NCBI GenBank assembly: GCA_028875575.1
Contig: JAPPDF010000080.1
Coordinates: forward strand, 93,940 to 157,939
From: Acidobacteriota bacterium
GTDB taxonomy: Bacteria > Acidobacteriota > Terriglobia > Versatilivoradales > Versatilivoraceae
Reading direction: 5' to 3'
Length of the DNA stretch: 64,000 nucleotides
Part shown: one piece after another, positions 6,052 to 55,656 of the stretch
Layout of the letters: each line of letters starts with the position of its first letter
How positions within the stretch are numbered: the stretch's first letter is position 1
The notes under the pieces: model-generated
What the model saw: only the letters and a program-made list of their open reading frames with translations
What the model was told of the DNA's origin: nothing
Database searches by the model: none
Translations under genes and position numbers: made by a program

Positions 6052-6429
6052 GTTATCCACGAAGGACCACTAGTGAATTGTTGAGCCTATCGCCAAAATC
6101 GTAGCGGGGCAGGTTCTCTTGCCGGCAATCTTGAGGATCTGCCTGTTTCGAAATCGGGTGCGACCTGGTAAAAAATGCTGGCTAACCACAAAAAGCACAA
6201 ATGTCACAATTTATTTTTTGTGCCTATTGTGGCCATTCCCGGTAAACGTCCCGCTGCCGAATTTTGCAAGAGGCCCTGTTGATTGTCGAATTCTGATTGT
6301 TGATTGGGGGATCAGGACACCCGATTTTGCGGAAATTCCAGAATCTACAATAAGCCTTCTGCAGAGTTTTGACCTGGGTGCGACTTCCTGTCCCTTGGTG
6401 GATCCCCTTCGTAGTCCCAAAGGGATAAC
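6052..6429. repeat. Word-array element A1 (10-nt/7-nt word arms, AT-rich hairpin core)
   Basis: Termini GTTATCC (6052-6058) and GGATAAC (6423-6429) are reverse complements. Left arm is GTTATCCACGAAGGACCACTAGTGAATTG and right arm is CTTGGTGGATCCCCTTCGTAGTCCC. Core 6092-6270 is ~80% identical by eye to 11281-11466. It includes the palindrome TTGCCGGCAA, an imperfect 16-bp hairpin (6186-6201 / 6217-6232) and an internal heptamer array GTTGATT GTCGAAT TCTGATT GTTGATT (about 6277-6305). Confidence 0.7.
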
Positions 6430-6488
6430 CCCGCAAATGGCCCCCCTTTTGCACTATCATAGCCCCGTTTGTAAACCGGGGGGACGGT

Positions 6489-7205
6489 GTGCCGGTACTC
6501 AGCGCCGAGGGAGTCGGAAAGACCTACACCCAGGGAGAGGCCCCCGTGGTTGCCGTGCGGGAGGTGAACCTGTCCCTGGAAAAAGGAGAGTTCGTCGCCT
6601 TGACGGGACCCTCCGGGTGCGGCAAGTCGACCCTGCTGCATCTTTGCGGGGGCATGGATTATCCCACCCGGGGACGCATCTGGCTGGACGGTACCGATCT
6701 CGGGAGCCTGGACGAAGGCCGGCTCACCCGAGTCCGCCGCCGTCAGATCGGCTTCGTCTTTCAATCCTTCAATCTTCTGCCCACCCTCACCGCCCTTGAA
6801 AACACGGCCCTGCCCCTCATGCTGGACGGCGTATCCCCTGACGTCGCCAGGCGGAAGGCCACCGGGTTGCTCGAGCGCCTGGGCCTGCTCCATCGTCAGG
6901 GCCATTACCCCCAGCAGCTCTCGGGAGGAGAGATGCAGCGGGTCGGCATCGCGCGGGCGGTGTGCCACGACCCCTTGCTGCTTCTGGCGGATGAGCCCAC
7001 CGGAAACCTGGATTCCGCCAACGGGGCCGATGTGCTGGAGCTTCTGCAGGCACTGAACCGCTCCCTGGGAGTCACTGTGCTGCTGGCCACCCACTCCGCC
7101 GAGATGGCGGCTGCCGGCCAGCGATTGTTGCACATGGTGGATGGCAGGATCGAGGCCGACCTCCAGTCCCGGCGGCCCATTGCCGGACACGATCCAGGCA
7201 ACTAA
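6489..7205 (+). CDS. ABC transporter ATP-binding protein (MacB/LolD/AttE-like)
   Basis: GTG start. Walker [10 protein letters not shown], signature [14 protein letters not shown], Walker [13 protein letters not shown]. Confidence 0.9.
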
Positions 7206-9778
7206 TGCATCTCTTCCGGACATTCATCCTGCGCCGCCTCCGCAAGGAAAAGCTGCGCGCTCTGGCAACCGTGTTGGGCGTTGCCCTGGGCATTGCCGTG
7301 GTGCTGGCGGTTCGGATGGCCAATCAGAGTTCTGTCCGCAGCTTCGAGACGGCCCTGGAAATGGTGGCCGGCAAGACCTCGCTGGAGATCGTCGGCTCAG
7401 GTCAAGGCCTGAGGGAAGATCGGCTGCTGGAGCTGGACTGGCTGGAGCAGTACGGACAGATCAGTCCTGTCATTGAAGGAGAAGCCAGGGCTTCACTCCC
7501 TTCGGGAACCACCGAATGGCTGAAAATCCTGGGGGTCGACATTCTCAGGGATGAGACCCTTCGGGACTACCGCCTGGTGCGTTTTGCCGATCGGCAACAG
7601 TCCCCCACCCCCAGGGAGTTTCTGCAACTGCTCAGCGACCCCGGGGCCATCGTGCTGACGCAGAAACTGGCACGACGGCACAACCTGGATCTCGGCTCCG
7701 GCCTGGACCTCGACATCGGGGATCGCCGGGAAACCTTGACGGTGCGCGGTCTGCTTCTGGACCGGGGGCCGGCCCGGGCTCTGAATGGAACCTTCGCCCT
7801 GATGGACATCGCAGCCGCCCAGTGGCTCTTCGGGCGTCTGGGTCGGATCGACCGCGTCGACCTGCAATTGAAACCCGAGATCTCCATCGACGGTGCCGAA
7901 GCCGCCATCGCCGCCCGGCTGCCGGAGGGATTGGCCGTCCAGCGTCCCTCCCGCCGCGGGCGCCAGGTGGAAAAAATGCTGGAGGCCTTTCACTTCAACC
8001 TGACCGCCCTTTCCCACATCGCCCTGCTGGTTGGCCTGTTTCTCATCTACAACACGGTGTCGCTGTCGGTCATCACCAGGCGCCAGGAAGTCGGGATCCT
8101 GCGGGCCGTGGGCGGCTCCCGGCGACAGGTGGCGGGGTTGTTCCTGGCCGAAGCCGGCCTGCTGGCGGCACTGGGATGCTCTCTGGGCATCCTGCTGGGG
8201 GGCTGGCTGGCCCGCGGCGCCCTCGGACTGACAGGCGCCACGCTGGATCGGCTCTACATCCGATCCGCCGCCGAACCGGTGTCGCTCGGTCCGGAACACC
8301 TGGTCCTGGCATTCGGGGTGGGCATCCCCCTGGCCTTGCTGGCGGCACTGCTTCCCGCCCTGGAAGCTTCACGGGTGGCGCCGACCGAAGCTGTCCGCGG
8401 CGCCGACCGGGTCGAGAGCCGTATCCGCTTGAGCTGGAGGCAACGCTGGCTTCCCCCGATCCTGTCCGCCCTGGCTGTCGGGTTCGCCTGCCTGGATTCG
8501 GTCGACGGCCTTCCCCTTTTCGGCTATGCAGCCTGCCTCGCCACCGTTTTCGCGGTCGCCTTTCTGGTCCCGGTGGTGCTGCATTTCTCAGGGAGGGCGG
8601 GTTCCTGGCTCACCAGGCGGCGGACGGGAGTGGAGGCCCTGCTGGCCAACGCCAACCTCAGCGGATCAATACCCCGCATTTCGATCTCGGTGGCCGCCCT
8701 GGCCGTGAGTCTTTCCATGCTTACAGCCATCGCCGTCATGATCGGCAGCTTCCGGGAGACGGTCCAGTACTGGGTGGAGCAGACGCTGAGAGCCGACCTC
8801 TTTGTGGCCCCGGCCACGCGTTCCAATGTCTATTCGGAGTCGACGCTCTCTCCCGAAGTCGTGCGACTGATATCCACAAACCCCCGGGTGGCTGCCGTCG
8901 ACCCCTTCACCAGTTTCAACATCGACTATCAGGACCGCAGGGTCTTGCTGGGATCCGGTGACTTCGAGGTGCACCTGAGCCGTTCAGGGCTGCTCTTCAA
9001 GGCTCCACGCCAGGGGCGATCGGCCATGAGAGCCGCCATCGGCGAGGACGCGGCGGTGGTTTCGGAAAGCTTTGCGCTCCGGCATCGGAAGGCGGTGGGA
9101 GACCGGCTGGTGCTCAACACGGACCAGGGGCAGCGTGCCTTTCGAGTGGCCGCCGTCTACTACGACTACTCGAGCGATCAGGGAGTCGTGGTATTGGACC
9201 GGAGCACCTTCCGCAAGTACTACGGAGACCGGCCTCCCCGCAGCCTGGCGGTCTATCTGAAGGCGGGACTCGACCCGGAACGGGTCCGCTCGGAAATGAT
9301 TGCGGGACTCCCGCCCCATTCGCGTCTGTTCGTGCATACAAATGCTTCTCTTAGGGCGGAAGTCCTGCGAATCTTCGACAACACCTTTACGATTACCTAT
9401 GCTCTGGAGATTATCGCCGTGGCCGTGGCCATCCTTGGGGTGGCCACCACCCTGGTCACCCTGATACTGGACCGCAAACCGGAGCTGGCCCTGCTGCGCT
9501 GGGCCGGAGCGGAGCAGCGGCAAATCCGGAAGATGGTGATCATCGAGGCGTCGCTGTTGGGGGCGGTGAGCCAGGGGCTGGGAGTGGTGGCCGGGATTCT
9601 GCTCTCTCTGATCCTGGTCTTCGTGATCAACGTCCAGAGCTTCAACTGGACCATCCAGTTTTACCTGCCGGCGGGCTTCCTGCTGCAGTCGTCCCTGCTG
9701 ATCCTGCTGGCCACAACCCTCTCGGGCATCTATCCCGCCTACCGTGCCGGGCGGATTCCGTCGGCCCGGGAAGCCTGA
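7205..9778 (+). CDS. ABC transporter permease with two FtsX/MacB-type modules (AttF/AttG-like fused)
   Basis: 857 aa. Two 4-TM FtsX-like blocks are separated by large extracytoplasmic regions. The start overlaps the upstream stop (TAATG). Confidence 0.85.
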   Translation: MHLFRTFILRRLRKEKLRALATVLGVALGIAVVLAVRMANQSSVRSFETALEMVAGKTSLEIVGSGQGLREDRLLELDWLEQYGQISPVIEGEARASLPSGTTEWLKILGVDILRDETLRDYRLVRFADRQQSPTPREFLQLLSDPGAIVLTQKLARRHNLDLGSGLDLDIGDRRETLTVRGLLLDRGPARALNGTFALMDIAAAQWLFGRLGRIDRVDLQLKPEISIDGAEAAIAARLPEGLAVQRPSRRGRQVEKMLEAFHFNLTALSHIALLVGLFLIYNTVSLSVITRRQEVGILRAVGGSRRQVAGLFLAEAGLLAALGCSLGILLGGWLARGALGLTGATLDRLYIRSAAEPVSLGPEHLVLAFGVGIPLALLAALLPALEASRVAPTEAVRGADRVESRIRLSWRQRWLPPILSALAVGFACLDSVDGLPLFGYAACLATVFAVAFLVPVVLHFSGRAGSWLTRRRTGVEALLANANLSGSIPRISISVAALAVSLSMLTAIAVMIGSFRETVQYWVEQTLRADLFVAPATRSNVYSESTLSPEVVRLISTNPRVAAVDPFTSFNIDYQDRRVLLGSGDFEVHLSRSGLLFKAPRQGRSAMRAAIGEDAAVVSESFALRHRKAVGDRLVLNTDQGQRAFRVAAVYYDYSSDQGVVVLDRSTFRKYYGDRPPRSLAVYLKAGLDPERVRSEMIAGLPPHSRLFVHTNASLRAEVLRIFDNTFTITYALEIIAVAVAILGVATTLVTLILDRKPELALLRWAGAEQRQIRKMVIIEASLLGAVSQGLGVVAGILLSLILVFVINVQSFNWTIQFYLPAGFLLQSSLLILLATTLSGIYPAYRAGRIPSAREA

Positions 9779-9803
9779 CAGTCAAGGAAATGGAACCGTG
9801 TTC

Positions 9804-11015
9804 ATGGTGTACCGCCGGGACGGTGGGGAGTTCTGGTCGCGTCGCTTTCCCGACAAGAAGCCTCATCCCTCGACGAAATTCCCGATCCCGCTCCGGCTCC
9901 GGCCACGACTCCTGCTGGCCGCGGCCTTGATTCCCTGCCTGCTGGCGGGCGCGGGCTGGGCCCAGACCTGGCGGCAGGCCCGGCCCGGCTACCGCATGCA
10001 GTTTCCCCGCGACCACGCCAGCCACCCGGAGTACCGGATCGAGTGGTGGTACTACACGGGAAATCTGGCGGACAGCAACTCGCGGCGGTTCGGCTTCCAG
10101 CTCACCTTCTTTCGGGTGGGTGTCCGGAACCGACCGGAAAACCCTTCCCGCTGGGCGGTAAGAGACCTCTTCATGGCCCACTTGGCGTTGAGCGACCTCA
10201 AGACCGGCGGCTTTCATTTTGCCGAACGGTTGAACCGGGCCGGGCCGGGATGGGCCGGGGCTTCTACCGAAACCTACCGAGTCTGGAACGAGAGCTGGGA
10301 GGCCGAGTTCGACAGCGGCGGCCGCCACCGGCTCCAGGCACGGGACGAGGACTTCGGGATCGACCTGGAGCTGGAACCCGGCAGGAAACCTCTCCTGCAC
10401 GGCCAGGCCGGACTCAGCCGGAAAGGAGCTCAGGACGGGAACGCCTCTCACTACTATTCTCTGACGCGCATGCCCACGCGCGGCCGAATCTGGGTTGACG
10501 GCCGGAAATTCGAAGTCAGCGGGCTGAGCTGGATGGACCATGAATTCGGCACCAGCTTTCTGGAACCGGACCAGATCGGGTGGGACTGGTTCGCCCTCCA
10601 GTTGGACAATGGCCAGGACTTGATGCTGTTCCAACTGCGGAGGTCCGACGGCCGGCTCGACCCCCATTCCGGCGGGACTCTGCTGGAGGCCTCCGGACAA
10701 TCCCGTGCCCTGGGCAGGTCCGACTTTACTTTGGATCCGGTGGGGACCTGGCAGTCTCCCCACAGCGGAGCCCGCTATCCGATCCAATGGCACCTGAGCC
10801 TTCCCGGCCAGAGACTCAGCCTGACGGTGACCGCCGCCCAACCGGACCAGGAGCTGCGCACGCCGAGCTCTACCCAGGTCACCTACTGGGAGGGCGCCGT
10901 GGTGGTGACCGGCACCCGCGGCGCCAATCCGGTTACAGGCCGGGGATATCTGGAGATGACCGGTTACGCCGGCCAGTCGATGGGCGACGTGTTTCGGGGA
11001 GGCAGTGGAGATTGA
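9804..11015 (+). CDS. AttH/CrtC-like lipocalin-type (hydroxyneurosporene synthase-like) domain protein, secreted
   Basis: FPRDHASHPEYRIEWWYYTGNL plus the WMDHEFG motif are typical of the AttH/CrtC family. Signal-like LLLAAALIPCLLAGAGWA. ATG at 9804 (GTG at 9798 is also possible). Confidence 0.75.
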   Translation: MVYRRDGGEFWSRRFPDKKPHPSTKFPIPLRLRPRLLLAAALIPCLLAGAGWAQTWRQARPGYRMQFPRDHASHPEYRIEWWYYTGNLADSNSRRFGFQLTFFRVGVRNRPENPSRWAVRDLFMAHLALSDLKTGGFHFAERLNRAGPGWAGASTETYRVWNESWEAEFDSGGRHRLQARDEDFGIDLELEPGRKPLLHGQAGLSRKGAQDGNASHYYSLTRMPTRGRIWVDGRKFEVSGLSWMDHEFGTSFLEPDQIGWDWFALQLDNGQDLMLFQLRRSDGRLDPHSGGTLLEASGQSRALGRSDFTLDPVGTWQSPHSGARYPIQWHLSLPGQRLSLTVTAAQPDQELRTPSSTQVTYWEGAVVVTGTRGANPVTGRGYLEMTGYAGQSMGDVFRGGSGD

Positions 11016-11048
11016 AGTGTGAAGGATGAAGGGTGAAGGGTGAAAAGA
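11014..11048. repeat. Solo heptamer word array starting inside the stop codon of the AttH-like gene
   Basis: GAAGTGT GAAGGAT GAAGGGT GAAGGGT GAAAAGA, five phased 7-mers. No inverted partner nearby. Confidence 0.7.
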
Positions 11049-11118
11049 GGTTAGCCGGGAGCTGAGCTCCCGTGCGGATCACTCGAGGAAAACCCGGCGG
11101 ACGTTTATGAAAATGAAC

Positions 11119-11523
11119 CACGAATGAACACGAATAGGCACGAATACACTTGGGCCTCCTTCAACCACAAGAGGCGCCAAAATGCCTCTACAACTCTGTT
11201 GACCTGGCATGACTTCCAGTCATTCGTCGATAACCCCCTCGATGTCGTTTGGCCCACGCCCCAATTGACAGTTCGAGCATTTTGCAAAATTCGCAACGGG
11301 GCAGGTAATCTTGCCGGCAAACCTGAGGTCTTGCCTTTTTCAATATTGGGTGCGACCTGGTGAAAAATGTTTTCCAACTACAAAAAGCACAAAAGTCGCA
11401 AATTGTGTTTTTGTGCCTTTTGTGGCCGTTCCCGCTAAACGTCCCGCTGCCGAATATTTCAAAATGATCAATTCATCAATCCGATAATTGATGTTCATTC
11501 GTGTCCATTTGTGGTTCGTCGTT
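11119..11523. repeat. Word-array element A2 (10-nt word arms, AT-rich hairpin core)
   Basis: Left arm CACGAATGAA CACGAATAGG CACGAATACA (11119-11148). Right arm TTCATTCGTG TCCATTTGTG GTTCGTCGTT (11494-11523) is the reverse-complement word type. Core 11281-11466 is homologous to 6092-6270 and carries the conserved hairpin 11378-11394 / 11409-11425. Confidence 0.7.
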
Positions 11524-11593
11524 TCTCTGAGTGGATGTGTGTTTTCCCGAGATTGTTGGTCTGAGGCGTCGCCTCGCTAAGAGCCAAGCCTAA

Positions 11594-14095
11594 ATGGAAA
11601 TCGACGATACTCCCATCCTGCAGGCCGTGAATATCCGGCGCACTTATCCCGGAGTCGTGGCCCTTGGCGGCGTTTCCCTGGACTTGAATCCGGGAGAGGT
11701 GCACGCCCTGGTCGGCGAGAACGGCGCCGGCAAGAGCACCCTGATCAAGATCATCTGTGGGGCGCTGGCTCCCGACACAGGGGAGTTGTTCTTTCAGGGC
11801 CTTGCGGTGGCTTGGCCCAACCCCGTCGCCGCCCGAACCCGGGGGATCGTCACCGTCCACCAGGAACCTGAGCTGTTCCCCACCCTTTCGGTTGCCGAGA
11901 ACATGGCCATGGCCAGTGGGCTGCCGTTGCGCGGCTCCGGACTGGTGGATTGGAACCGTGTGAACCGGGAAGCGCGGGAAACGGTCCGGCAGATCGGGGA
12001 GAGGATCGACGTCCGTCAGCCAGCCTCCCGTCTCAGCGTGGCTCATCGCCAGATGATCCAGGTGGCGGCGGCCATTCTGCAGAATGCCAGGGTGGTGGTG
12101 CTGGACGAGCCCACCAGCGCCTTGAGCGAAGAGGAAGCCCGCTGGTTGTTCCAGCAGATCGAGCGTTTGAAGGCGGGCGGAGCCGGCATCCTCTACATCT
12201 CCCATCGCCAGGAAGAGATCTTTCGCCTGGCCGATCGTATTACGGTCCTGCGGGACGGACTCAGGGTGTGGACTCGGGCCAGACAGGCCGTCGGTCCCGA
12301 GGAGACCATCGAGGCCATGGTTGGGCGGCCGGCTTCGACCGTGGGAGCTTCTCCCGCCGGCCAGGCAGGCTCGCCCACTCCCAAGGAGGGTCCCGTCCGC
12401 TTGCAGGTCAGCGGGTTCACCGACCGAAGTGGTCGCTTTCGACAAATCGATCTGGAGGTGGGCTCGGGTGAAATCGTGGGGATCTATGGCCTGGTGGGGG
12501 CCGGGCGTAGCGAGTTTGCCCGGGGCGTGTTCGGTCTGAGGCCCGCCGACGGCCTGGTCCGGATAGACGGCAACGCCTGCGAGATTCGCCGGCCCCGTGA
12601 AGCGCTGCAGGCCGGTATCGCCTACGTCCCCGAGGACCGCCTGAGCCAGGGACTCTGCCTGGGCCTGCCCGTTCGCTCCAACGCGGTGCTTTCGACCCTG
12701 AGACGCTGGACTCGGGGCCTCTTGGCCAGCAGGACCCGCGAGCAGCAGGCGACGCGCCTGGTCGCCGGACGGCTGGCGGTGCGTTACCGCTCCACCGAGC
12801 AGCCGGTCCAACAACTGTCAGGCGGCAACCAGCAGAAAGTGGTCCTGGGGCGCTGGCTGTTGGCTCAGCCCAAGGTGCTCATCCTGGACGAACCCACTCG
12901 CGGAGTGGACGTAGGAGCCAAAGCCGAGATCCACCGGCATTTGCGCCTCCTTGCGGGGGAGGGCTGCGCCATCCTCCTGATCTCTTCGGAACTGCCCGAG
13001 GTCATGGAACACGCCGACCGGGTGGTGGTCTTTCGCGAGGGGGAAATTGGCGGGGAGTTCGATCCCCGCCAGACCGGCCCCGCCCGGGTCGCCGCCGTGG
13101 CCCTGCCCCGCCAGAGCACGGAGGAGCTGTCCGCCGCAGAGTCTCGATCCGCCGAATCCCGCTTTCGGGGCCGCTCCTTCAACGAACTGGCGCTGCTAAT
13201 TTGCGTAGCGGGGCTCGGCCTGTGGCTGACGGTTTCCACCGAGGGGTTCAGCCTGTTGAACCTGCTGACTCATGCCTCTCTTTGGGCCATTCTGGGACTG
13301 GCAGCCGCCTCGGTCATCGTGGGCCGGGGTATCGACATTTCCATCGGCTCGATGGTTGCTCTGTCGGCGGCTTCCGCCGCCATGGTCCTGAAGCTGCCCT
13401 ATTCGGCCGAGATCTTGATTCCGGTCGCCATTTTGGCCGGACTGCTGGCCGGAACGGCGGCAGGCGTTCTCAACGCGGTTCTGGCGCTGCTGGGAGGGCT
13501 GCACCCTATCGTGGTCACTTTGGGGACCCTGACCATCTATCGCGGATTGGTGATCGCCATGCTGGGGGGGAAACCCATGACCGGACTGCCGCCCGAGTTC
13601 GGCCGGCTGGCCATCGATCCGGCAACCGGGTTCCGGGGCGCGGTGGCGGTGGCTGTCCTGGTCGTCCTGCTGGTTTATCTCTGGATGGCGCACACCCGCA
13701 GCGGCCGGCAGGTCTACGCACTGGGCTCGTCCCCCCGAGCCGCCGGACTGCTGGGTCTTTCCAGGGCACGCCTCTGGCCGGTCACCTTTGGTCTGGGTGG
13801 ACTGCTGGCCGGCGTGGCCGGAGTGCTCCAGCTCTCCATGGGCCAGCAGATGCAAGCCCGCCTTGGAGCCGGCTGGGAGCTGAGCGCCATCGCCGTGGCC
13901 GTCATCGGCGGCGTGGGAATCACCGGCGGCCGCGGAACGGTGCTGGGTGTGGTGCTGGGCGCTCTCCTGCTGCGACTGGTCAACAGCGCTCTGGTACGCT
14001 GGGGCGTCTCGGATCAACAGACGGACCTGGTGGTGGGCAGCCTGATCCTGGCGGCGCTGCTGCTGGATCTGGCCTGGCGGGGGTGGAAGCGATGA
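11594..14095 (+). CDS. CUT2-type sugar ABC importer, fused double-NBD ATPase plus permease
   Basis: Single open frame of 833 aa. NBD1: GENGAGKST, LSVAHRQMIQVA, VVVLDEPTSAL. NBD2: GLVGAGRSEF, LSGGNQQKVVLGRWL, ILDEPTRGVD. A linker is followed by an RbsC/AraH-type permease (GIDISIGSMVAL, multiple TM helices). Confidence 0.85.
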   Translation: MEIDDTPILQAVNIRRTYPGVVALGGVSLDLNPGEVHALVGENGAGKSTLIKIICGALAPDTGELFFQGLAVAWPNPVAARTRGIVTVHQEPELFPTLSVAENMAMASGLPLRGSGLVDWNRVNREARETVRQIGERIDVRQPASRLSVAHRQMIQVAAAILQNARVVVLDEPTSALSEEEARWLFQQIERLKAGGAGILYISHRQEEIFRLADRITVLRDGLRVWTRARQAVGPEETIEAMVGRPASTVGASPAGQAGSPTPKEGPVRLQVSGFTDRSGRFRQIDLEVGSGEIVGIYGLVGAGRSEFARGVFGLRPADGLVRIDGNACEIRRPREALQAGIAYVPEDRLSQGLCLGLPVRSNAVLSTLRRWTRGLLASRTREQQATRLVAGRLAVRYRSTEQPVQQLSGGNQQKVVLGRWLLAQPKVLILDEPTRGVDVGAKAEIHRHLRLLAGEGCAILLISSELPEVMEHADRVVVFREGEIGGEFDPRQTGPARVAAVALPRQSTEELSAAESRSAESRFRGRSFNELALLICVAGLGLWLTVSTEGFSLLNLLTHASLWAILGLAAASVIVGRGIDISIGSMVALSAASAAMVLKLPYSAEILIPVAILAGLLAGTAAGVLNAVLALLGGLHPIVVTLGTLTIYRGLVIAMLGGKPMTGLPPEFGRLAIDPATGFRGAVAVAVLVVLLVYLWMAHTRSGRQVYALGSSPRAAGLLGLSRARLWPVTFGLGGLLAGVAGVLQLSMGQQMQARLGAGWELSAIAVAVIGGVGITGGRGTVLGVVLGALLLRLVNSALVRWGVSDQQTDLVVGSLILAALLLDLAWRGWKR

Positions 14096-17047: not shown

Positions 17048-17398
17048 ACTGTCTCACCGCCGATCGGCCCCGCCGGCCGGTGAGGGCCGAACCCCTGCTC
17101 CGGCCCTGTCCTGGTGTTCTACCTCAGAAACAGGGTTGCCATCTTTGGGAGCGCAACGGCGCCGGATTCCAGGAGCGACGAGGAGCCAATGCTCATTCAT
17201 TGCGAGGAGGAGCGACGACGAAGACGGTGCCGTTCCGCCCGAACCCGGAGGGCCGATGGAGGTCCCCGGGAGGGAGAGCAGAATGGCGACGGTTTCGCTG
17301 AAACGTAACGGGCCACTACTAGAGACCGTTTCGCGGTGGAACCTCCATCGGAGATGGTAATCCTATTTCTGAGACAGGACACCAGGGAGTTGACTGGG

Positions 17399-17693: not shown

Positions 17694-19256
17694 GTGACGC
17701 TCCAGCAGCCGTGGATCCTCGGCACGGCCCTGCTCTTGTTGGCCGTCAGTCCCTTTCCAGCCTGTGCCCCAGCGCCGGTCACCGCCCCTGAAGACGCGCT
17801 TGCCTTGGGCAGCCGGCGGCAACTCTTCCTCGACGACAACCTCACCCGGTCGATGACCGGGCTTACCCGCGTTCTGCACCAACCTGAAAAGGTCTCGGGC
17901 AACCCACTGCTTTCACGCATTCCCAAGGAGAGCGGCGCCTGGGACGCCGGCATGTTCATCGGGTTTTCAAGCGTCCTCTACGACCGGCAGGAGGGGCTGT
18001 TCAAGATCTGGTACGGCCTCCACCCTGGAGAGGGAGGGGACGAACTGTCCCGTCTCTGCTATGCCACAAGCCGGGACGGGGTGCATTGGCAAAAGCCCCT
18101 GCTGGGAATGATTGAAGCGGACGGCAGCAAGCGCAACAACGTCGTCATGCCCCATAGTGGGGTGGCCAGCGGGGTCTTCCTCGACGAAAGGGAGCCCGAT
18201 CCGAACCGTCGGTACAAGATGTTGCACATGTGGAAGGGCTACAAGGTCCACGCTTCCTATTCCGCCGACGGCTTGAAGTGGAAACCCTACAACCAGGGGC
18301 GTCCGGTGCTGTTCGTTCCACCCGGCCACGACAGCCACATGGCGCCCTACTGGGACGAGACCCTCGGCAAGTACGTGGCCATCGTGAGGGACCGCACCGG
18401 ACGCATTTCGGAGGTGCGGCCCCGCCTGACCACCGACCCGGAGGCCGTCGAAACCTGGCGGCAGCTCTGGGACCCCCGGCGCGAGCGCCATCCCCGCAAT
18501 CACAGCCTGCGTCGAGTGGGCCAGGCGCTCAGCCGGGACTTCGTGCATTGGACCGACTACCGCCCCATCCTGGGAGCGGACGCCCAAGACCCTCTCAATC
18601 GGGACCAGTTCTACAACATGGAGGTCCTGGCCTACGACGGCCTGCGCCTGGGCCTGATGACGGTCTTCAGCTACGACCCCGAGTACTGCCGGGGAGCGGT
18701 GCAGCTCACCTACAGCCGGGACGGCAGGAACTGGCTGCGGGCCGGCGACCGCCGGGTGTTCCTGCCGCTTTCCCAAAGGCCGGGAGACTTCGACTGGGGC
18801 ACCATCTATCCCCTGCAGGCGCCGCTGCTGGTGGGGGATGAAATCTGGATCTACTACACCGGCTTCGGGGTAGATCACAACCACAGACGCCCGCCGGGGA
18901 TCTCCCGCGTGACCAACGGCATCGGCCTGGCCAAGCTCAGAATGGATGGATTCGTCTCGCTGGAGGCCGGTTCGGCCGAGGGAAGCCTCACCACCAGGCC
19001 CTTCACCTTCGAAGGGGAGCGCCTGACCATCAACGCCGCCGCTCCTCGAGGTCGGGTCCAGGTGGAGATCCTCGGCAGTGACGGTCTCCCCCTGGAGGGG
19101 TACGGCAAGGGCGAGTGCCTGATGGAGCGTTTTGATGAGACCCGGCAGGTGGTTCGCTGGAACGGAAGGGAAGGCCTCGGTCACCTGCAGGAACAGGTTG
19201 TTCAATTGAAGTTCACGCTGCAGCAGGCCAGGCTCTATTCATTCAGGTTCTTTTGA
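17694..19256 (+). CDS. Secreted beta-propeller glycoside-hydrolase-like protein (GH43/32/130-like superfamily guess)
   Basis: GTG start with a signal-like N-terminus. Repeated blade-like motifs (ATSRDGVHWQKP, YSADGLKWKPY, YSRDGRNWLR). The family assignment is by eye only. Confidence 0.45.
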   Translation: MTLQQPWILGTALLLLAVSPFPACAPAPVTAPEDALALGSRRQLFLDDNLTRSMTGLTRVLHQPEKVSGNPLLSRIPKESGAWDAGMFIGFSSVLYDRQEGLFKIWYGLHPGEGGDELSRLCYATSRDGVHWQKPLLGMIEADGSKRNNVVMPHSGVASGVFLDEREPDPNRRYKMLHMWKGYKVHASYSADGLKWKPYNQGRPVLFVPPGHDSHMAPYWDETLGKYVAIVRDRTGRISEVRPRLTTDPEAVETWRQLWDPRRERHPRNHSLRRVGQALSRDFVHWTDYRPILGADAQDPLNRDQFYNMEVLAYDGLRLGLMTVFSYDPEYCRGAVQLTYSRDGRNWLRAGDRRVFLPLSQRPGDFDWGTIYPLQAPLLVGDEIWIYYTGFGVDHNHRRPPGISRVTNGIGLAKLRMDGFVSLEAGSAEGSLTTRPFTFEGERLTINAAAPRGRVQVEILGSDGLPLEGYGKGECLMERFDETRQVVRWNGREGLGHLQEQVVQLKFTLQQARLYSFRFF

Positions 19257-19286
19257 CTCTTCGTGGTTCACCGTGGTCCTTCGTGG
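19257..19286. repeat. Solo decamer word array directly after a stop codon
   Basis: CTCTTCGTGG TTCACCGTGG TCCTTCGTGG. This is the reverse-complement word type of class A (CCACGAAGG). It begins 1 nt after the TGA at 19254-19256. Confidence 0.65.
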
Positions 19287-19330
19287 GTATTTTCCCCCTT
19301 CATTGCTTTCCGGTCTGAAGCAGCGGTTGA

Positions 19331-20906: not shown

Positions 20907-22193
20907 ATGAAACACGGGGTCCAACCAGGGCAGGTCGAGCCTCGGGAGTCCGAAACCGGCGTCACCGATGTGTTCCGGTTGGTCCCCGAACCCGTGAAGT
21001 GCGGGATCTTTCTTGGGTTGATGGCGGTCGTGGGCGTCGCCGGCCCGGGCTGCCGCCCCCGGGTCGAGGACCATCGGGTCCGGGTCGAGATCGAGGGGGA
21101 GGTGGAGATCGTTCCTCCGGGAAGCGGTCAGGGGCGAGGGATGCTGGGAATCGTTCGGCACCCGGACGGGTCGATCTTTGTCAACACTCAGAGCCGAGGG
21201 CTGGTCAGGAGCACCGACAACGGCCGGACCTGGGAGGCGATGGAGGCGGAGAACGCCTTCGCCCTAGGAGTCACCCGAGACGGTCGGCTGTGGCTGGCCG
21301 GTCCGAAGGCAGAGGATGCGGTTTCGGTTTCCTATTCGGCGGACCGGGGCCGGAGCTGGAAGGCCGCCCTGGTGGACGGCGCCGCTCTGGCCCCGTCTTC
21401 AAAGCGGCCCTACGACTGGGTGGGAGACGACTACAACACCTTCCTGGAGAGTCCCGACGGCACCCTGATGCTGGGGGTGGGCGCCCGCTATCTGCCCTGG
21501 TACTATCAGGACCCCGACCTCATGCAGGACGGCCTGGTCCGGCCGGACGCGGACATCGGGGGCCTGTTTCTGATTCGCAGCACCGACGGCGGCAAAAGCT
21601 GGGGAGACCCGACCCTGATGCATCCCTTCGTCTGTGAAGTCGGTCTGGCAGCCGACCCCTTCAACCCGGACCGTCTGCTGGCCATGACCCGCGTTCAGCG
21701 GCCGCTGCTGGCCGGAGAGGATCGGAAGACCACGCTGGAGAAGACGGGATGTCCTGCCGATGTGCCTTCCGCTGAGCCCTCCATCTACAAGAACGGTCTT
21801 CTGTTGGAGTCCCACGACCGAGGCCGCACTTTCCGCGAGGTGCCCGGCAGCCTCACCGGCTACTACGAACACCGGGGGACCATTCTTTGGACCGGCGATA
21901 ACGTCGTGGTGGTGACCCACCAGGCAGGCAACCAGAGCCCGCGATGGGGGGCTCTATTCGCACGGATCAGCCTGGACGGAGGAAAGACCTGGGCGGACGG
22001 GTCTCCGTCAGGGACGCCCCGGATGAACCAATCCACCCGCTTCGAGCTGGTCCCCAAGCCTCCCGGCCACTCCTTTACCGCCCCCACCCTGGAACTGTCC
22101 CGGGACCGGTTCCTGACTCCCTACCTCCACGGGAGCATCGCCGCCGGCACGGCAACCGTCACCGGCGTCTTCTGGCGCCTCGAGCGGCAATAG
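20907..22193 (+). CDS. BNR/Asp-box repeat (sialidase-like beta-propeller) protein
   Basis: ATG at 20907. Four Asp-boxes: STDNGRTW, SADRGRSW, STDGGKSW, SLDGGKTW. No FRIP-type motif was seen, so catalytic sialidase activity is uncertain. Confidence 0.7.
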   Translation: MKHGVQPGQVEPRESETGVTDVFRLVPEPVKCGIFLGLMAVVGVAGPGCRPRVEDHRVRVEIEGEVEIVPPGSGQGRGMLGIVRHPDGSIFVNTQSRGLVRSTDNGRTWEAMEAENAFALGVTRDGRLWLAGPKAEDAVSVSYSADRGRSWKAALVDGAALAPSSKRPYDWVGDDYNTFLESPDGTLMLGVGARYLPWYYQDPDLMQDGLVRPDADIGGLFLIRSTDGGKSWGDPTLMHPFVCEVGLAADPFNPDRLLAMTRVQRPLLAGEDRKTTLEKTGCPADVPSAEPSIYKNGLLLESHDRGRTFREVPGSLTGYYEHRGTILWTGDNVVVVTHQAGNQSPRWGALFARISLDGGKTWADGSPSGTPRMNQSTRFELVPKPPGHSFTAPTLELSRDRFLTPYLHGSIAAGTATVTGVFWRLERQ

Positions 22194-23882: not shown

Positions 23883-24040
23883 GGGATTTCCTTTCCTGCG
23901 GGCAGCTTGAGGATTCCTGCCCTTCTTGCGAGATGGCTGCTTACAGGTTGCAATTATATGCCAGGCGCGCAGTTTGACGGCTGATCGATGATGAAAGCGA
24001 ACCACGAACGGCCCAGACGTCGCGGAATGAAGCCCCACGG

Positions 24041-24236
24041 GAGCGCGGGCGTCCCGCCCGCATGCACTCCCGTTGCCTGCCGCTCAGTTTCCCCGCGATG
24101 GGGCACCCGGGCACCCTGCCGGCGGGAACGGCAGGGGATGGACCGAAGCAGAGTCCTGGCGCCGTTGCCGTTCGAGCCGGGTGGAGGAGATGGGCCAAGC
24201 TGTGCCAGGACTTGTGCGGGCGGGACGCCCGCGCTC
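24041..24236. repeat. Perfect 22-bp inverted repeat pair flanking 152 bp
   Basis: GAGCGCGGGCGTCCCGCCCGCA (24041-24062) and its exact reverse complement TGCGGGCGGGACGCCCGCGCTC (24215-24236). Each arm contains the 17-bp near-palindrome GCGGGCG-TCC-CGCCCGC. Confidence 0.85.
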
Positions 24237-24477
24237 CCGGGGGGACCCTCCTCCCATCACTCTTGCTGCTTGAGGGGGCACGCGCCATCTTGCCGGGCCA
24301 AAGTCCTGCCGGTCGGATCATCTGAGAGCGAAACAGCTTTGTTTCAGGCAAGACACACCTTCGCCAATCGGGGACGAAACGGTGTATCCTTTCCGGTAAT
24401 CTACCAACCAGGACGGGATCGGATTTCGTTCGATGGCGGGCCGCCAGTGAAGAGGCGGCCAGGGAGGATGGGTCAAC

Positions 24478-28550: not shown

Positions 28551-28579
28551 AAACGCGGAGGGACTTGAAAAGAAATAGA

Positions 28580-28624
28580 GTTATCCACGAAGGGACACGA
28601 AGGAAGACGAAGGGCCACTAAGGA
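28580..28624. repeat. Solo class-A-type left arm (decamer word array)
   Basis: GTTAT then CCACGAAGGG ACACGAAGGA AGACGAAGGG CCACTAAGGA. It starts with the same GTTATCCACGAAGG terminus as element A1. Only a degenerate possible partner is seen, near 28905-28935. Confidence 0.6.
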
Positions 28625-28932
28625 ACTGGAGAAGACTCGAGAGGAATCCGCCCAGGGTTGGGAAGTGGGAGGGCGAACCGATGCGGGCTTGCGGCAGGCG
28701 GCCAACCTGGCCCGCCGGGAAGATGCGTTTGGCGTTCAGGGCACCCCTGTTGCCACTGGTTGCGATCGATGCCGCAGGTCCAGTTCCAGTGAGCACGGGT
28801 GAACGGGAAGAACTTCAAGGAGGACTTCCGGCGTCGGCCGCAGGCAAGCCGGGGATCGGGATCCCAACCCTAGCCGGGTCCATGCTTGCATGCCATTCGG
28901 GTACGACCGCGACCCGCCTTGCGTCCTTGCCA

Positions 28933-30756: not shown

Positions 30757-30800
30757 GGGGTCCTCCTTCCCTTGCCTGGAACACCCATGTTCCAGGCATG

Positions 30801-30956
30801 AGTGGAGAGTGACTAGTGGATAGTGGTTAGTTGTGATTTGATCCGTGCGTCAAGCATCTTGTCGACCTCAGTGCAATGCTCGAGACGTGCATCCAGGTTA
30901 TCAGGCGCTTGCCGGTTACCGAAACCCGCCGCTGACCACTCTTCACTCTCCACCTA
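30801..30956. repeat. Word-array element B1 (heptamer arms)
   Basis: Left arm AGTGGAG AGTGACT AGTGGAT AGTGGTT AGTTGTG (30801-30835). Right arm CCGCTGA CCACTCT TCACTCT CCACCTA (30929-30956). The core shares AGTGCAATG and ATCAGGCGCTTGCC (30900-30913) with B3. Confidence 0.75.
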
Positions 30957-31023
30957 TTTGAAACGCCCCTGTTTCGCTCTGCATGATCCGTCCCTTCGTC
31001 GGGGACGGGGGGCGCCAATCGGG

Positions 31024-33558: not shown

Positions 33559-33564
33559 TGGAAG

Positions 33565-33754
33565 TTCCTTTCCTCGGGCAGTGTCGTGGGTTAGGGGAGA
33601 GCTGCGAAGCTGCGGTCGACGTGGGTTACCCGGCGAAACGCCACCTACAAGACATCCTTATAGAGCAGCGCAGCTGCGGCCTCGTGTAGCCCCGGGCGGC
33701 AGCCCGGGGTCGTATGGGTCCCGCACCAACCTAGCCGCGAATGCGGCGAATAGG
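33565..33754. repeat. REP-like hairpin unit, copy 1
   Basis: CAGTGTCGTGGGTTAGGGGAGAGCTGCGAAGCTGCGG ... GTAGCCCCGGG-CGGCAG-CCCGGGGTCGT ... GCCGCGAATGCGGCG. Compared with copy 2 it contains an internal ~65-nt extra segment that repeats the GAGCAGCGCAGCTGCGGC motif. Confidence 0.7.
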
Positions 33755-33883
33755 AAGCACCCGTTCGGGAACGCATTGCGTTTCCAAAGATACGCCGCCC
33801 CACGTCACGGATACCTGCCGCCGGCGCTTCGCCGCTCCACTCGAACCACCAGGCCTAACCCCAGTAATCCAACAATTCAAGAA

Positions 33884-34009
33884 ATCCCTTCCCTCCGCAG
33901 TGTCGTGGTTTAGGGAAGAGCAGCGAAGCTGCGGCTCAGGGTAGCCCCGGCTGTCAACCCGGGGTCGTCTGAACCCTGCGCTGCCGCCGCCGCGAATGCG
34001 GCGGATTAG
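33884..34009. repeat. REP-like hairpin unit, copy 2
   Basis: CAGTGTCGTGGTTTAGGGAAGAGCAGCGAAGCTGCGGCTCAGGGTAGCCCCGGCTGTCAACCCGGGGTCGT...GCCGCGAATGCGGCGG. Same order of three GC-rich stem-loops as copy 1. Confidence 0.7.
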
Positions 34010-34102
34010 CAGCCGGGTCGCGGAAACCGCTGCCTCCCCAACACCACGCAAGACAGGTACCGCTTCCTGAGGGTGCAGGTCCCCCGCAGCCACCGCTTCC
34101 GA

Positions 34103-34861
34103 CTACGGTTGGCAGGCCCGGCGATAGTCGACCAGTCGTTCCGCCACGAAGCCCTCGAGGTTGACCGACTCGAAGAAGCGGGCGCCCTGGTCGTAGAGCT
34201 GCTTGACGTGCTCTTCGCTCTCGGGCGAGACGCCGACATGGATGCCGTGCCGCCCGCCGACTTCCAGGGCCTTGTCCAGGGCCTGCAGCACCAGGGGATG
34301 GCGGGTCTCGATGGGGTGTCCATAGGCGGTGGACAGATCCCAGGGACCCATGTTGAAGATATCGATGCCGGGAACGGCTGCAATGGCCTCCAGTTGCTCG
34401 ACGGCGGACGGCTCCTCCAGCATGAGCGCCACCAGGACCTCATCGTTGGCCTGATCGAGGTAGGCGCGGGCATCCCCCAGCCCATAGTCGATGGGGCGTC
34501 CGGGCCCGGCGCCGCGCCTTCCCTGCGGGGGGTACTTGCAAAGCGATACCGCCGCCCTGGCGTCCTCGACGCTGGTGATGTGGGGAAAGAGGATGCCGTC
34601 GGCTCCGTGGTCCAGGGCCTGCTTGACCAGGGTCCGCTCCACTCCCGGCACCCGTACGATGGGAGTGGCTCCGGTGGCCCGCACCGCCAGGATCATGGCG
34701 TCCAGGGTGTCGCTGCTGATGGTTCCGTGCTCGGCATCCAGCATGATGCACTCGTACCCTGCCAGACCAGCGATCTCGGCCAGGTTGGGATGCGGGGTTC
34801 GAATGGTGCAGGAAAATACGGCCTTGCCCTCGCGCAGCAAGGCCTTCATTCGGTTTTGCAT
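34103..34861 (-). CDS. HpcH/HpaI family 2-keto-3-deoxy-acid aldolase
   Basis: 252 aa. LDAEHG, PIVRVP and the GADGILFPHI..SVEDA motifs are typical of HpcH/HpaI (RhmA/GarL-type) aldolases. Confidence 0.8.
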   Translation of the reverse strand: MQNRMKALLREGKAVFSCTIRTPHPNLAEIAGLAGYECIMLDAEHGTISSDTLDAMILAVRATGATPIVRVPGVERTLVKQALDHGADGILFPHITSVEDARAAVSLCKYPPQGRRGAGPGRPIDYGLGDARAYLDQANDEVLVALMLEEPSAVEQLEAIAAVPGIDIFNMGPWDLSTAYGHPIETRHPLVLQALDKALEVGGRHGIHVGVSPESEEHVKQLYDQGARFFESVNLEGFVAERLVDYRRACQP

Positions 34862-34881
34862 GAGATCGAAACCCTCCGGTT

Positions 34882-35067
34882 AGTGATCAGTGGCTAGTGG
34901 ATAGTGGTCAGTTGTGGTCAGTGGAGCGATTTGGGGGCATACAAGCGCCTGGTGACCTAGTTGCACGCCTTGAAGGACCACGCCGAGATCAACACGATGC
35001 CAAACGCGTCGATCAAAAAAACTAACCACTAGCCACTAACCACTAGCCACTTGTCGGCTATCCACGC
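34882..35067. repeat. Word-array element B2 (heptamer arms, core inverted relative to B1/B3)
   Basis: Left arm AGTGATC AGTGGCT AGTGGAT AGTGGTC AGTTGTG ... AGTGGAG (34882-34926). Right arm CCACTAG CCACTAA CCACTAG CCACTTG TCGGCTA TCCACGC (35026-35067). The reverse complement of the core aligns with the B3 core (..TTGATCTCGGCG..GTGCAA..GGTCACCAGGCGCTTG..). Confidence 0.75.
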
Positions 35068-35127
35068 CTCCATCCTGTTTCCCCGGGACGGATCATACAG
35101 GGCAAAAAAGGGGCGTTTCCGCACCAC

Positions 35128-42820: not shown

Positions 42821-43171
42821 TTAGGTGAGAAACTTGTAAAGCAAGCCAAGCATGGGAATGAACAGCAGGCTGATGAGCGTCCAGATGAACTTGTTCAGGG
42901 CGTTCATTTCCGTGCGGAGCGAAGTGAATTGAGTCTGCATCTCCGCCCGAAGCTCGGTGATCTGAGTTTGCAAGTCGGACCGGAGTTCCTTGATCTGAGT
43001 TTGCGTGTCGGACCGGAGCTCGGTGATTTGAGCGCCGATGGCGGTGATGACGTTCTGCCCACTCAAGTTGCGCATCTCCTCGATGGCGGGATGAATCAGC
43101 TTGGGGTCGGCGCTGCTGTCGATCAGGACCCGATGGATTGCGTTGGTTTCAGGTTTGGATGAGGCTGGCAT
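42821..43171 (-). CDS. Tail-anchored coiled-coil protein with 11-aa repeats, function unknown
   Basis: ATG at 43171 preceded by AAGGGGAG. Three 33-nt DNA repeats (42941-43040) encode QI(T/K)ELRSDxQTQ-type units. Single C-terminal TM (FIWTLISLLFIPMLGLLY). Confidence 0.55.
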   Translation of the reverse strand: MPASSKPETNAIHRVLIDSSADPKLIHPAIEEMRNLSGQNVITAIGAQITELRSDTQTQIKELRSDLQTQITELRAEMQTQFTSLRTEMNALNKFIWTLISLLFIPMLGLLYKFLT

Positions 43172-48961: not shown

Positions 48962-49052
48962 AGTTGGCCGGCGATTCCACGATAAACCCTTCCGAGTGTA
49001 CTTCGGTTTCATCCCGTATGGTCCGCCCGGTCGCTTGAGGCGGGGCCGGCCA

Positions 49053-49223
49053 AGTGGATAGTGGATAGTTGTCAGTGGTTAGTGAATTGATCGATGGGTT
49101 ACGTGGATTGTTGATCTCGGCGCAGTCCGTCAATAAGTGCAATGAGGTCATCAGGCGCTTGCCTGCTCCCGAAATACTCCACTAATCACTGACCACTGAT
49201 CACTAGCCACTAATCACAATCAC
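49053..49223. repeat. Word-array element B3 (heptamer arms)
   Basis: Left arm AGTGGAT AGTGGAT AGTTGTC AGTGGTT AGTGAAT (49053-49087). Right arm CCACTAA TCACTGA CCACTGA TCACTAG CCACTAA TCACAAT CAC (49179-49223). The right arm overlaps the stop codon of the symporter gene (49220-49222). Confidence 0.8.
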
Positions 49224-53423: not shown

Positions 53424-53498
<75 letters not shown>

Positions 53499-55147: not shown

Positions 55148-55330
55148 GATCACTCCTTGAAAGCCGGATCCGGAATCGAAAATCGCCGGGAGCGGGAGCC
55201 CCCTGGGGGTATCCTCCAAATTATAGCCGAGTTGCCTTCCCCTCGGGCAAGAGCCCCCATGCAAGGGCGAAGCCCACAGTCGAGCCGGAAGCGGGCAAAT
55301 GCGAAGTCTCGCCGTTCACAGAAAAAATTA

Positions 55331-55484
55331 ACATCGATGCACAGGATATACAGGATTTTTTCTGACAGTCCGCCGTCCTGTATTCCTGGAAATCGGCAAA
55401 CCCCCACGCGATCATCGCCAGCGTCGGCTTCCCGTGCAGCAGCGTCTCGTCCTGGTTATCCTGTCCATCCTGTATATCCATGTC
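55331..55484. mobile_element. Word-array element C1 (9-nt word arms), MITE-like
   Basis: ACATCGAT GCACAGGAT ATACAGGAT ... GTCCTGGTT ATCCTGTCC ATCCTGTAT ATCCATGT. The core is homologous to C2. Flanked by A/T-rich DNA (GAAAAAATTA | ... | CCTTTTTTGTTTTTTTATCT). Confidence 0.7.
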
Positions 55485-55502
55485 CTTTTTTGTTTTTTTA
55501 TC

Positions 55503-55656
55503 TACATGGATGCACAGGATATACAGGATTTTTGCGAAAGTCCGTTGTCCGTTTTCCCGGAACTTCCGCAAGCCGGTTCCGGATCATCGCCCGAGCCGTG
55601 TTCCGGTGCATGAACCTTTCGTCCTGTGTATCCTGTGCATCCTGTGCATCGATGTT
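55503..55656. mobile_element. Word-array element C2 (9-nt word arms), MITE-like, tandem to C1
   Basis: ACATGGAT GCACAGGAT ATACAGGAT ... GTCCTGTGT ATCCTGTGC ATCCTGTGC ATCGATGT. The outer end CCTGTGCATCGATGT is the exact reverse complement of the C1 start ACATCGATGCACAGG. Confidence 0.7.

Follow-up and report, generated by a model that had tools for sequence, protein, structure and literature searches.

Background

The intervening sequence (IVS) of the Coxiella 23S rRNA is bounded by a 28-bp terminal stem with tandem GACAGAT heptamers, which differ in number between strains; it carries a decaying S23p open reading frame (ORF), and RNase III cleaves within the stem (PMC4990558). Tandem heptamers are also found between genes. 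Such simple sequence repeats (SSRs) include the cyanobacterial STRR, TAACTGA in Beggiatoaceae, Cyanobacteria and Bacteroidetes (PMC4679880), and GGGAATC in Xanthomonas, where 70-75 cases occur as convergent inverted pairs (PMC4692102). The present study concerns a window of 64,000 nucleotides (the whole stretch of DNA analyzed, to which coordinates refer unless the locus of a relative is named) from contig JAPPDF010000080.1 of an Acidobacteriota bacterium, and seven elements (A1, A2, B1-B3, C1 and C2; Table 1) in its intergenic spacers. A preliminary description regarded them as a single family of a design that it did not recognize, in which a core is enclosed by inverted arrays of short words, 10 nt long in class A, 7 nt in class B and 9 nt in class C. 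We find that class B corresponds to a gene-deleted version of the known 23S rRNA IVS/S23p design (PMC4990558), and it is probable that several unrelated, transposase-less foldback families, whose shared design consists of inverted word-array arms, have left relics throughout the window.

The window is part of the metagenome-assembled scaffold ROBB21-1 scaffold_143 (ENA ERZ23496516; 145.9 kb) and has a G+C content of 63%; a metagenome-assembled genome named Candidatus Versatilivoraceae (Acidobacteriota, Terriglobia) is among its close relatives. The gene map was built from codon-position G+C and from the precomputed annotation of overlapping or orthologous loci. Orthologous loci of relatives, numbered with the prefix L, were fetched via homologues of three flanking proteins; L450 represents a 95% relative, L123 a 91%, L208 an 89% and L209 an 86% relative. 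L451 comes from the same sample as L450, with an identical symporter protein, and L125 from the same sample as L126.

Results and discussion

A four-helix-bundle cassette as the parent of class B

The spacer between the convergent stops of a sodium/solute symporter gene and a deoxyhypusine-synthase-family gene contains B3 in the window, together with a small module, termed E. In L450 the corresponding spacer measures 712 nt and comprises, in order, (AGTGGAG)3, a four-helix-bundle gene, an insert of the element X (described below), (CTCCACT)n and the same E module. The gene is near-full in length, with a frameshift near its start, and its called ORF of 96 aa carries PF05635. L451 is empty at this site: its spacer of 6 nt reads GTAAT/GAACATCAG (here and below a slash marks the junction), and there is no duplication at the junctions. 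The E module common to B3 and L450 suggests common ancestry with the L450 cassette.

The 3' end of the L450 gene matches B1-B3 specifically. When its last 87 nt were compared by blastn with the 64-kb window, B2 (E = 9e-5), B1 (0.004) and B3 (0.004) were found, the next match lying at 6.9. The 96-aa protein, in a tblastn comparison with the window, likewise found B1 (1.4e-4), then B3 (0.067) and B2 (0.77), in a frame of the form ..C-A/T-E-I/V-N/D-x-M/I-L-x-A-x-I-K-S directly before the right arm. In the alignment, the mini elements of class B consist of the left arm, the last ~100 nt of the gene and the right arm, with about three quarters of the gene deleted. Because the cassette stands at the B3 site in L450 and its gene end matches all three copies, class B can be read as the remnant of an internally deleted cassette, in which some three quarters of the ORF are lost and the last ~25 codons kept. 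The parent is laid out as a left heptamer array, ~25 nt, a four-helix-bundle ORF (Avd-like 'S23p'), ~20 nt and the reverse-complement array. The descent of B1-B3 from a PF05635 cassette is thus supported, an intact ORF being absent in the window copies. The preliminary description had called for a search for a longer autonomous copy; a full-length form of class B does exist, and it carries the four-helix-bundle gene instead of a transposase.

Similar states are found elsewhere in the relatives. At a second site, which lies between the genes for cytochrome bc and for a glycosyltransferase, two tandem four-helix-bundle genes of 127 aa (TIGR02436, E = 9e-35; PF05635, E = 4e-37) are present in both L126 and L124, each after long GTGACCG/GTGGCCA arrays. 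L125 is without these tandem genes, and L123 has a mini element in which the last 29 codons only are present (55% identity, E = 4.5e-4). At the B1 site there is no element in L126 or L127, and a variant element in L123. The spacer orthologous to that of B2 is occupied by a variant B element in L123, by a core-less nonamer hairpin in L126 and by an unrelated 82-aa ORF in L127.

Pfam and NCBIfam, searched with the ORFs located in the cores of B and C, returned no match, and an nhmmer profile of the B cores matched four-helix-bundle loci weakly (E 0.002-0.3), in a comparison whose control loci were biased by construction. A metagenome scan with the 16-mer GGTYAYCAGGCGCTTG of the B core, a pattern that proved too short, brought up 120 loci, which were unrelated and did not include any B element.

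The E module is itself a small repeat, with a length of ~70-90 nt; in two copies GGCCGGCC marks its boundaries. It is always located directly beside a heptamer arm, on either side of the relic, and is also present at 12108-12200 of L450. The E copy at B1 is 89% identical over 35 nt to that of B2, and 84% over 56 nt to that of L450.

Heptamer-armed cassettes in other phyla

Species-representative genomes scanned with the L126 protein yielded 80 loci, which belong to Acidobacteriota, Chloroflexota, Pseudomonadota, Verrucomicrobiota, Planctomycetota, Bacteroidota, Cyanobacteriota and other phyla. Inverted arms (local score of at least 26) accompany 55 of the 79 four-helix-bundle genes with enough flank, compared to 3 of 384 size-matched control windows, and the period is 7 in 52 of these 55 armed cassettes. 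The left arm ends ~20-35 nt before the start codon, and the right arm lies ~20-30 nt after the conserved C-terminus ..LNGLKRSL. The usual arm word is (A/C)GTGGNN; distant proteins are accompanied by AGTTTTG (L193), AGCTTAT (L201), GTGATAA (L204) or GGGGTAG (L205), always with period 7. Many arm pairs in the 80 loci are only 14-150 nt apart and represent mini elements or core-less hairpins. The cassette design is general across phyla, and the period of 7 is kept where the word differs.

A role of the heptamer arms in providing stops in all frames was considered and rejected, as many arms in other phyla (CAGTGGCCAGTGG...) are without a stop codon. Among the loci L129-L167, the cassettes are 62-79% identical to the query and occupy the same position in most loci of many phyla, between flanks that read IFGEPDI...VHGVDVF. 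In L130 (7456-10746), the one locus of this set in which the ORFs were inspected, the cassette lies inside a 1096-aa ORF, putatively DNA-methyltransferase-like from a reading of its sequence, which remains open across arms and cassette in a frame that differs from that of the four-helix-bundle gene.

Word arrays and folds

The seven elements and the words quoted for them are present in the window at the places given by the preliminary description, and they do have a common architecture, in which inverted short-word arrays enclose a core. The phasing of the words far exceeds chance, since in a shuffled-sequence test no shuffle reached the observed count in any class. The heptamer pattern AGTGRNYAGTGR, with at most one mismatch, has 25 matches compared to 4.8 expected (none of 100 shuffles reached 25), and 23 of the 25 fall within B1-B3. 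The nonamer pattern ACAGGATNNACAGGAT has 7 matches compared to 0.24 expected, six of them in C1/C2, and the decamer pattern CACGAANRNNCACGAA has 12 compared to 2.1. In class A, phased decamer words are found in the arms of A2, whereas those of A1 hold only one or two degenerate ones (6058-6073 and 6385-6400).

Within each class the copies are clearly related. B1, B2 (inverted) and B3 can be aligned over arms and core with a mean column identity of 77%; C1 and C2 form a tandem unit of 172 nt (77% identity); and A1 and A2 have a common core of 188 nt (82% identity), the remainder being rearranged. The common origin proposed for all classes did not hold, as the cores of class B, class C, the decamer foldbacks and X are unrelated, and the short strings common to cores of different classes are trivial.

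The arms pair in the fold of every element, and z scores of the folds were computed against dinucleotide shuffles. With the exception of the minus strand of A1 (-1.8), all strands and elements have z values of -3.2 to -7.7, B1-B3 ranging from -3.3 to -6.6, and C1 and C2 jointly reach -10.8. The arms of B1-B3 (25-35 nt), which like all B arms are period-7 arrays, are 73-81% complementary in one comparison and 73-86% in a wider one, and orthologous arms differ mutually by ~20-25%. In the L450 cassette, 23 of 23 arm positions are complementary.

Pairing at the level of words had been taken as a sign of protein-binding arrays. The perfect arms of the near-intact L450 cassette, set against the window copies, lead us instead to read the imperfect pairing as decay, and we infer that word-level complementarity is what remains of two perfect mirror arrays after slippage and point mutation. 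Slippage is indicated by a solo array located after an AttH-family gene, where copy number at one orthologous site changes quickly, from 3 in L209 (13848-13873) and 4 in the window (Tandem Repeats Finder (TRF), period 7, 4.6 copies) to ~25 in L208 (13800-13965).

Insertion of the elements and composition of classes A and C

Compared among close relatives, orthologous sites are filled in some and empty in others, which identifies A1, A2, B1, B3 and the C family as insertions, so that the presence/absence polymorphism and the copies in relatives which the preliminary description had proposed to look for are both found. Besides the empty sites of B1 and B3 mentioned above, A1 is absent from L208 and A2 from L209. 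Target-site duplications had been sought along with empty sites; no duplication is present at the two clean ones (L451 for B3, L208 for A1).

The A1 spacer of L208 measures 49 nt and can be aligned on both sides of window positions 6047-6446 without duplication; its junction, CCGTGACA/TTTGCAC, shows no direct repeat. In L209 the same spacer is filled with a different decamer element. The arms of A2 read CACGAATGAA CACGAATAGG CACGAATACA on one side and TTCATTCGTG TCCATTTGTG on the other; they are 90% complementary between 11115-11135 and 11497-11517, and the fold has a z of -7.4. A2 was inserted at the original start codon of an 833-aa ABC-transporter gene, the present ATG (11594) lying downstream of the element. 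In L209, where the A2 spacer is 92 nt long, the junction reads ATGAATGTGAAC/GACAACCGTCCC (11100-11600 compared to L209 13920-13967), and in the window ATGAAAATGAAC/CACGAATG... The orthologous A2 copy of L208 has the same arms with a reduced core, and a paralogue in L123 (19698-19894) consists of arms and flanking core without the 188-nt X segment.

The X element has the ends GAGCCTTTTGCAAAATTCG / CGAATTTTGCAAAAGGCTC, an inverted repeat that is perfect over 19 nt in L450, and an inner hairpin built of short words of the CACAAAAGN type. Six copies, variably present, were found: in A1, in A2, three in L208 and one inside the L450 cassette. One of them, at L208 9691-9985, has an enlarged inner loop and lies between ABC ATPase and FtsX-permease genes that abut in the window (7205). 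Class A, described earlier as one element, is thus a nested composite, in which a decamer-armed foldback has received the multicopy inverted-repeat element X in its loop. The outer end of the decamer foldbacks is conserved, as GTTATCCACGAA in this lineage and as TAGCCACGAA in viral contigs. In the latter the decamer pattern marks mainly core-less hairpins between phage genes, and in one contig (L212) decamer arms tightly flank a 247-aa gene matching no family. A promoter/terminator scan of A1 and A2 gave nothing above shuffles, and a plasmid database searched with A1 gave no match.

Class C, a foldback whose arms are built of nonamers, is tandemly duplicated in the window. A third copy, which has identical ends (CATCGATGCACAGGAT...) and whose core is homologous, is found in L208 (~21800-21950); the corresponding spacer is empty (73 nt) in L209, and in the window it contains no more than a solo decamer arm (Table 1). 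Core-less nonamer hairpins were found at the B2 site of L126, in L204 (Pyrinomonadaceae) and in a single metagenome contig. The C core has a reading frame of weak conservation that matched no family, and C1+C2 had no match in the plasmid database. In viral contigs, the C terminus pattern found unrelated sequence only, with neither arm words nor a partner arm nearby, and the nonamer pattern mostly found repeats that, by the look of the pattern, resemble collagen-type coding repeats. For the classes with 9- and 10-nt words, a GxxExxY or PD-(D/E)XK cargo was considered and could not be supported.

The same spacers have repeatedly been entered by different families, the occupant of the B2 spacer being different in each of four genomes. 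In addition, X is located in the loops of other elements or beside their arms, and E beside an arm in all three B copies and in the L450 cassette. This distribution suggests that DNA prone to form hairpins may itself be preferred as a target.

Proposed explanation and alternatives

In the proposed explanation, the foldbacks would have spread, now or formerly, by a trans-acting mechanism that acts on hairpin or array ends and leaves no visible target duplication. Their arms would begin perfectly complementary, lengthen and shorten by replication slippage and then decay to word-level pairing. Upon co-transcription, RNase III would cut the 25-35 bp stems and uncouple the flanking cistrons unharmed; insertion between cistrons or in rRNA loops would thereby become tolerable, and the mRNA of the cargo would be set free. 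By analogy with the rRNA intervening sequences, transcribed stems are probable RNase III substrates. The window copies themselves are most likely relics that are neutral or nearly so.

Several points weigh against this explanation. Pfam and NCBIfam gave no match with the B relics, and in a profile of 81 four-helix-bundle proteins the B1 ORF was aligned at positions 96-118 of 123 with an E of only 3.6. Common ancestry of B3 and the L450 cassette needs either a precise loss in L451 or transfer by recombination. B2 is antisense to its flanking genes, and the window arms, at 73-81% complementarity, may perhaps have lost RNase III cleavage. No mobility enzyme, target-site duplication or transposition intermediate was seen, and 'mobile' therefore denotes presence or absence only. 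Finally, neither a parent nor a cargo of the nonamer and decamer families was found, apart from one tightly flanked gene in the viral contig L212.

The arms could alternatively be protein-binding arrays, recognized by the four-helix-bundle protein itself or by an end-pairing recombinase, with the hairpin as a secondary feature. Avd-like proteins in diversity-generating retroelements bind both nucleic acid and reverse transcriptase. In its favor are the fixed period of 7 in almost all armed cassettes and the outermost ends, which are conserved per family (GTTATCCACGAA, CATCGATGCACAGGAT, ACAGTGAC). The word, moreover, follows the protein lineage, AGTGGNN occurring with proteins whose identity to the query is 60% or more and other words with distant ones; such co-variation is equally expected from shared descent. 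Since the arms of the intact cassette are perfectly complementary, the characterized relatives are RNA stems cut by RNase III, and the decamer and nonamer elements carry no such protein, we consider this alternative unlikely. The evidence favors the hairpin, in DNA or RNA, as the primary feature; a protein may also read the words.

[quoted passage not shown] They are small, intergenic, multicopy and polymorphic between relatives, with inverted ends; X has a classical perfect terminal inverted repeat of 19 nt, and hairpin ends without target duplication would fit Y1 transposases. Nevertheless, neither the window, as already stated in the preliminary description and confirmed by the annotation of the window and overlapping loci, nor ~200 kb of relatives' loci contains a transposase, and no autonomous transposase partner was found in the 80 four-helix-bundle loci. 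The full-length form of class B carries a four-helix-bundle gene in its place, the two clean empty sites are without duplication, and the arms are tandem arrays of variable length instead of unique ends.

Host-selected regulatory RNA structures (terminators, mRNA stabilizers or insulators, or leaders, X being the leader of an ABC transporter) are highly improbable in spite of the strong stems, the location of X, in A1 as well as in A2, upstream of a co-oriented ABC-transporter gene, and the end of B2 beside a ribosome-binding site, because the same genes lack the elements in relatives (A1 in L208, A2 in L209, B1 in L126/L127), X is also found inside the L450 cassette and between the ABC ATPase and permease genes of L208, orientation to flanking genes varies, the arms are decaying, and there is neither an Rfam match nor a promoter or terminator signal above shuffles.

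A broader proposal is that the elements with 7-, 9- and 10-nt arms form one hitherto unrecognized superfamily of bacterial and phage foldbacks, which would move with neither a transposase of their own nor a target duplication, with the arrays as functional ends and the Avd-like protein as the mobility or processing factor of the heptamer class. We regard this as speculative and unlikely. If true, it would explain both the entry of the IVS into rRNA genes and the presence of a cassette inside the putative methyltransferase ORF with the frame kept open.

Gene context and other features of the window

As previously described, all copies of the seven elements are intergenic, B3 abutting the stop codon of the symporter gene and B2 ending 20 nt from a start codon, next to the ribosome-binding site. 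A1 separates the divergent starts of an MFS gene (start 6037, minus strand) and an ABC ATPase gene (start 6489). The genes on either side of A2 are both on the plus strand, those around B1 and around B2 are co-directional on the minus strand, and C1/C2 occupy a divergent spacer of 614 nt. The annotation of the window contains no transposase or recombinase family. The original list of elements was correct and incomplete: in addition to the seven, the window contains three solo arrays and two foldbacks without word arrays (Table 1).

Table 1. Positions of the elements and related features in the window
Feature	Position	Strand	Remarks
A1 insertion, ~400 nt	6047..6446	.	ends GAGTTATCCACGAAGG... 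/ ...GGGATAAC; degenerate decamer words
X copy in A1	6083..6269	+	MITE-like; 82% over 188 nt to A2 copy
Solo heptamer array, TGAAGGG/AGTGAAG type	11013..11047	+	directly 3' of AttH-family gene stop; TRF
A2 decamer-armed foldback, X in loop	11112..11520	+	arms, fold, orthologue comparison
X copy in A2	11275..11462	+	82% identity to A1 copy
Foldback without word arrays	17110-17386		35-nt arms 83% complementary, 207-nt core; flanked by two plus-strand genes
Solo decamer arm, GACCACGAAG-type words	19259..19290	-	right after stop of gene 17694-19256
G+C-rich foldback without word arrays	24033-24244		30-nt arms 97% complementary (TGCGGGCGGGACGCCCGCGCTCCC type), 152-nt core
Solo decamer arm GAGTTATCCACGAAGGGACACGAAGGAAGACGAAGGGCCACTAAGG	28578..28625	+	TRF period 10, 3.8 copies
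B1, heptamer-armed, putative PF05635 cassette relic	30799..30956	-	last ~25 codons kept (..PDNLDARLEHCTEVDKMLDARIKS)
E module beside B1	30957..31023	-	similarity to E copies at B2 and L450
B2, opposite orientation	34878..35056	+	putative relic, frameshifted (DLVARLEG / HAEINTMPNASIKK)
E module beside B2	35057..35127	+	similarity to other E copies
E module beside B3	48962..49050	-	position as in L450 cassette
B3	49051..49220	-	putative relic with frameshift and stop (DLIALIDG / CAEINNPRNPSINS)
C1 nonamer-armed foldback	55327..55487	.	ends AACATCGATGCACAGGAT... / ...ATCCTGT..CAT; core ~100 nt
C2, second tandem C copy, best-preserved arms	55499..55664	.	35-nt arms 83% complementary, inner 21 nt 95%; z = -7.7

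The second solo decamer arm of Table 1 (28578-28625) shares the identical 16-mer GAGTTATCCACGAAGG with the left end of A1, and has an 85% match at a different site in L123. The type of the G+C-rich foldback is represented in L126 (21990-22030) by a core-less perfect palindrome, and in L123 the same divergent spacer contains two decamer elements.

The Rfam scan suggested earlier, including the Acido-1 and Acido-Lenti-1 motifs, was run, and the elements match no family. For the whole window at the gathering threshold, it identified tRNA and Acido-Lenti-1 (33664-33709) only, outside every element, and no rRNA; E-value scans of A1, A2 and 30700-35300 gave no match on the elements. Two Acido-Lenti-1 motifs are present on the minus strand, at 33664-33709 (42.2 bits) and 33919-33964 (35.8 bits, compared to a gathering score of 37). 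Both are located upstream of an 844-aa gene, within a duplication (33561-33751 and 33881-34006) with a spacing of ~255-320 nt.

Two further stretches were noted. Between a CN-hydrolase gene and a 108-aa ORF, ~500 nt of non-coding DNA (29330-29865) look unusually conserved relative to 14340-14860 of L123, the 91% relative, and may encode a leader or some other RNA without a coding function. Beside the counterpart of this stretch, L123 and L126 have an inserted PIN/PhdYeFM toxin-antitoxin pair, which the window is without. On the minus strand, a small ORF at 42821-43171 has a coiled-coil-like translation and a 33-nt tandem repeat of 2.6 copies; the 82-aa ORF which fills the B2 spacer of L127 (8773-9021) is likewise coiled-coil-like.

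Significance and comparison with known systems

The origin and mobility of the IVS, as well as the role of the widespread four-helix-bundle 'S23p' proteins, have been questions since the 1990s. In near-identical strains, the same positions contain the full cassette, relics, core-less hairpins, solo arms or an empty site. A series of this kind would allow a cycle of insertion, decay and loss to be reconstructed and the mobilizing activity to be searched for. Insertions in promoters, between cistrons and at a start codon (A2) can rewire expression. For annotation, inverted pairs of phased heptamer arrays provide a practical signature of cassettes and relics, and much of the 'simple-sequence' heptamer DNA in other phyla may be of the same origin.

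The parent of class B is of a known kind, the IVS/S23p element, and the one published account of the cassette design that we found is that of the Coxiella 23S rRNA IVS (PMC4990558). In a limited literature search we found no account of such an element outside rRNA, of period-7 arms as a cross-phylum hallmark, of the relic series or of the parallel 9- and 10-nt families. Like the 23S rRNA IVS of Leptospira and Coxiella (PF05635, TIGR02436), the parent has the same protein family as its cargo, a terminal inverted-repeat stem of ~25-30 bp and tandem heptamers of strain-variable number; the ORF is decay-prone, and the distribution is sporadic and horizontally transferred (PMC4990558). Unlike the IVS, which occupies helix 9, 25 or 45, the window copies are located between protein-coding genes, with their ORF cut to ~25 codons, and mini, core-less and solo-arm derivatives are abundant. 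With the intergenic heptamer SSRs the elements have tandem heptamers of variable copy number in common, a likeness by description only, as words and phyla differ; the portions of those reports used here take a simple-sequence view, without a link to four-helix-bundle cargo or to deletion derivatives (PMC4679880, PMC4692102).

In agreement with the preliminary description, the elements are neither REP/BIME, nor an Rfam family, nor a recognizable IS-derived MITE. They resemble IS-derived MITEs (Correia/NEMIS, RUP, ERIC, Nezha) in being small, non-autonomous, intergenic, multicopy, hairpin-forming and variably present, X fitting best, and differ from them in the absence of target-site duplication at clean empty sites, in their variable word-array arms and in a B parent that encodes no transposase. 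As in REP/BIME, they are abundant intergenic palindromes without target duplication, which can cluster and nest. A REP, however, consists of one imperfect palindrome, 20-40 nt in length, which has a conserved head and is linked to a RAYT gene. In the units described here, arrays of 7-10-nt words enclose cores of 100-330 nt; neither a REP unit nor a RAYT gene was seen, and no Y1 transposase family is present in any annotated locus. In their design the elements recall the eukaryotic Foldback (FB) transposons, with long inverted arms composed of a variable number of short tandem repeats and a middle that is variable or absent. The FB transposons are much larger, belong to another domain of life and have no sequence relation to the present elements, so that the resemblance is an analogy of design only.

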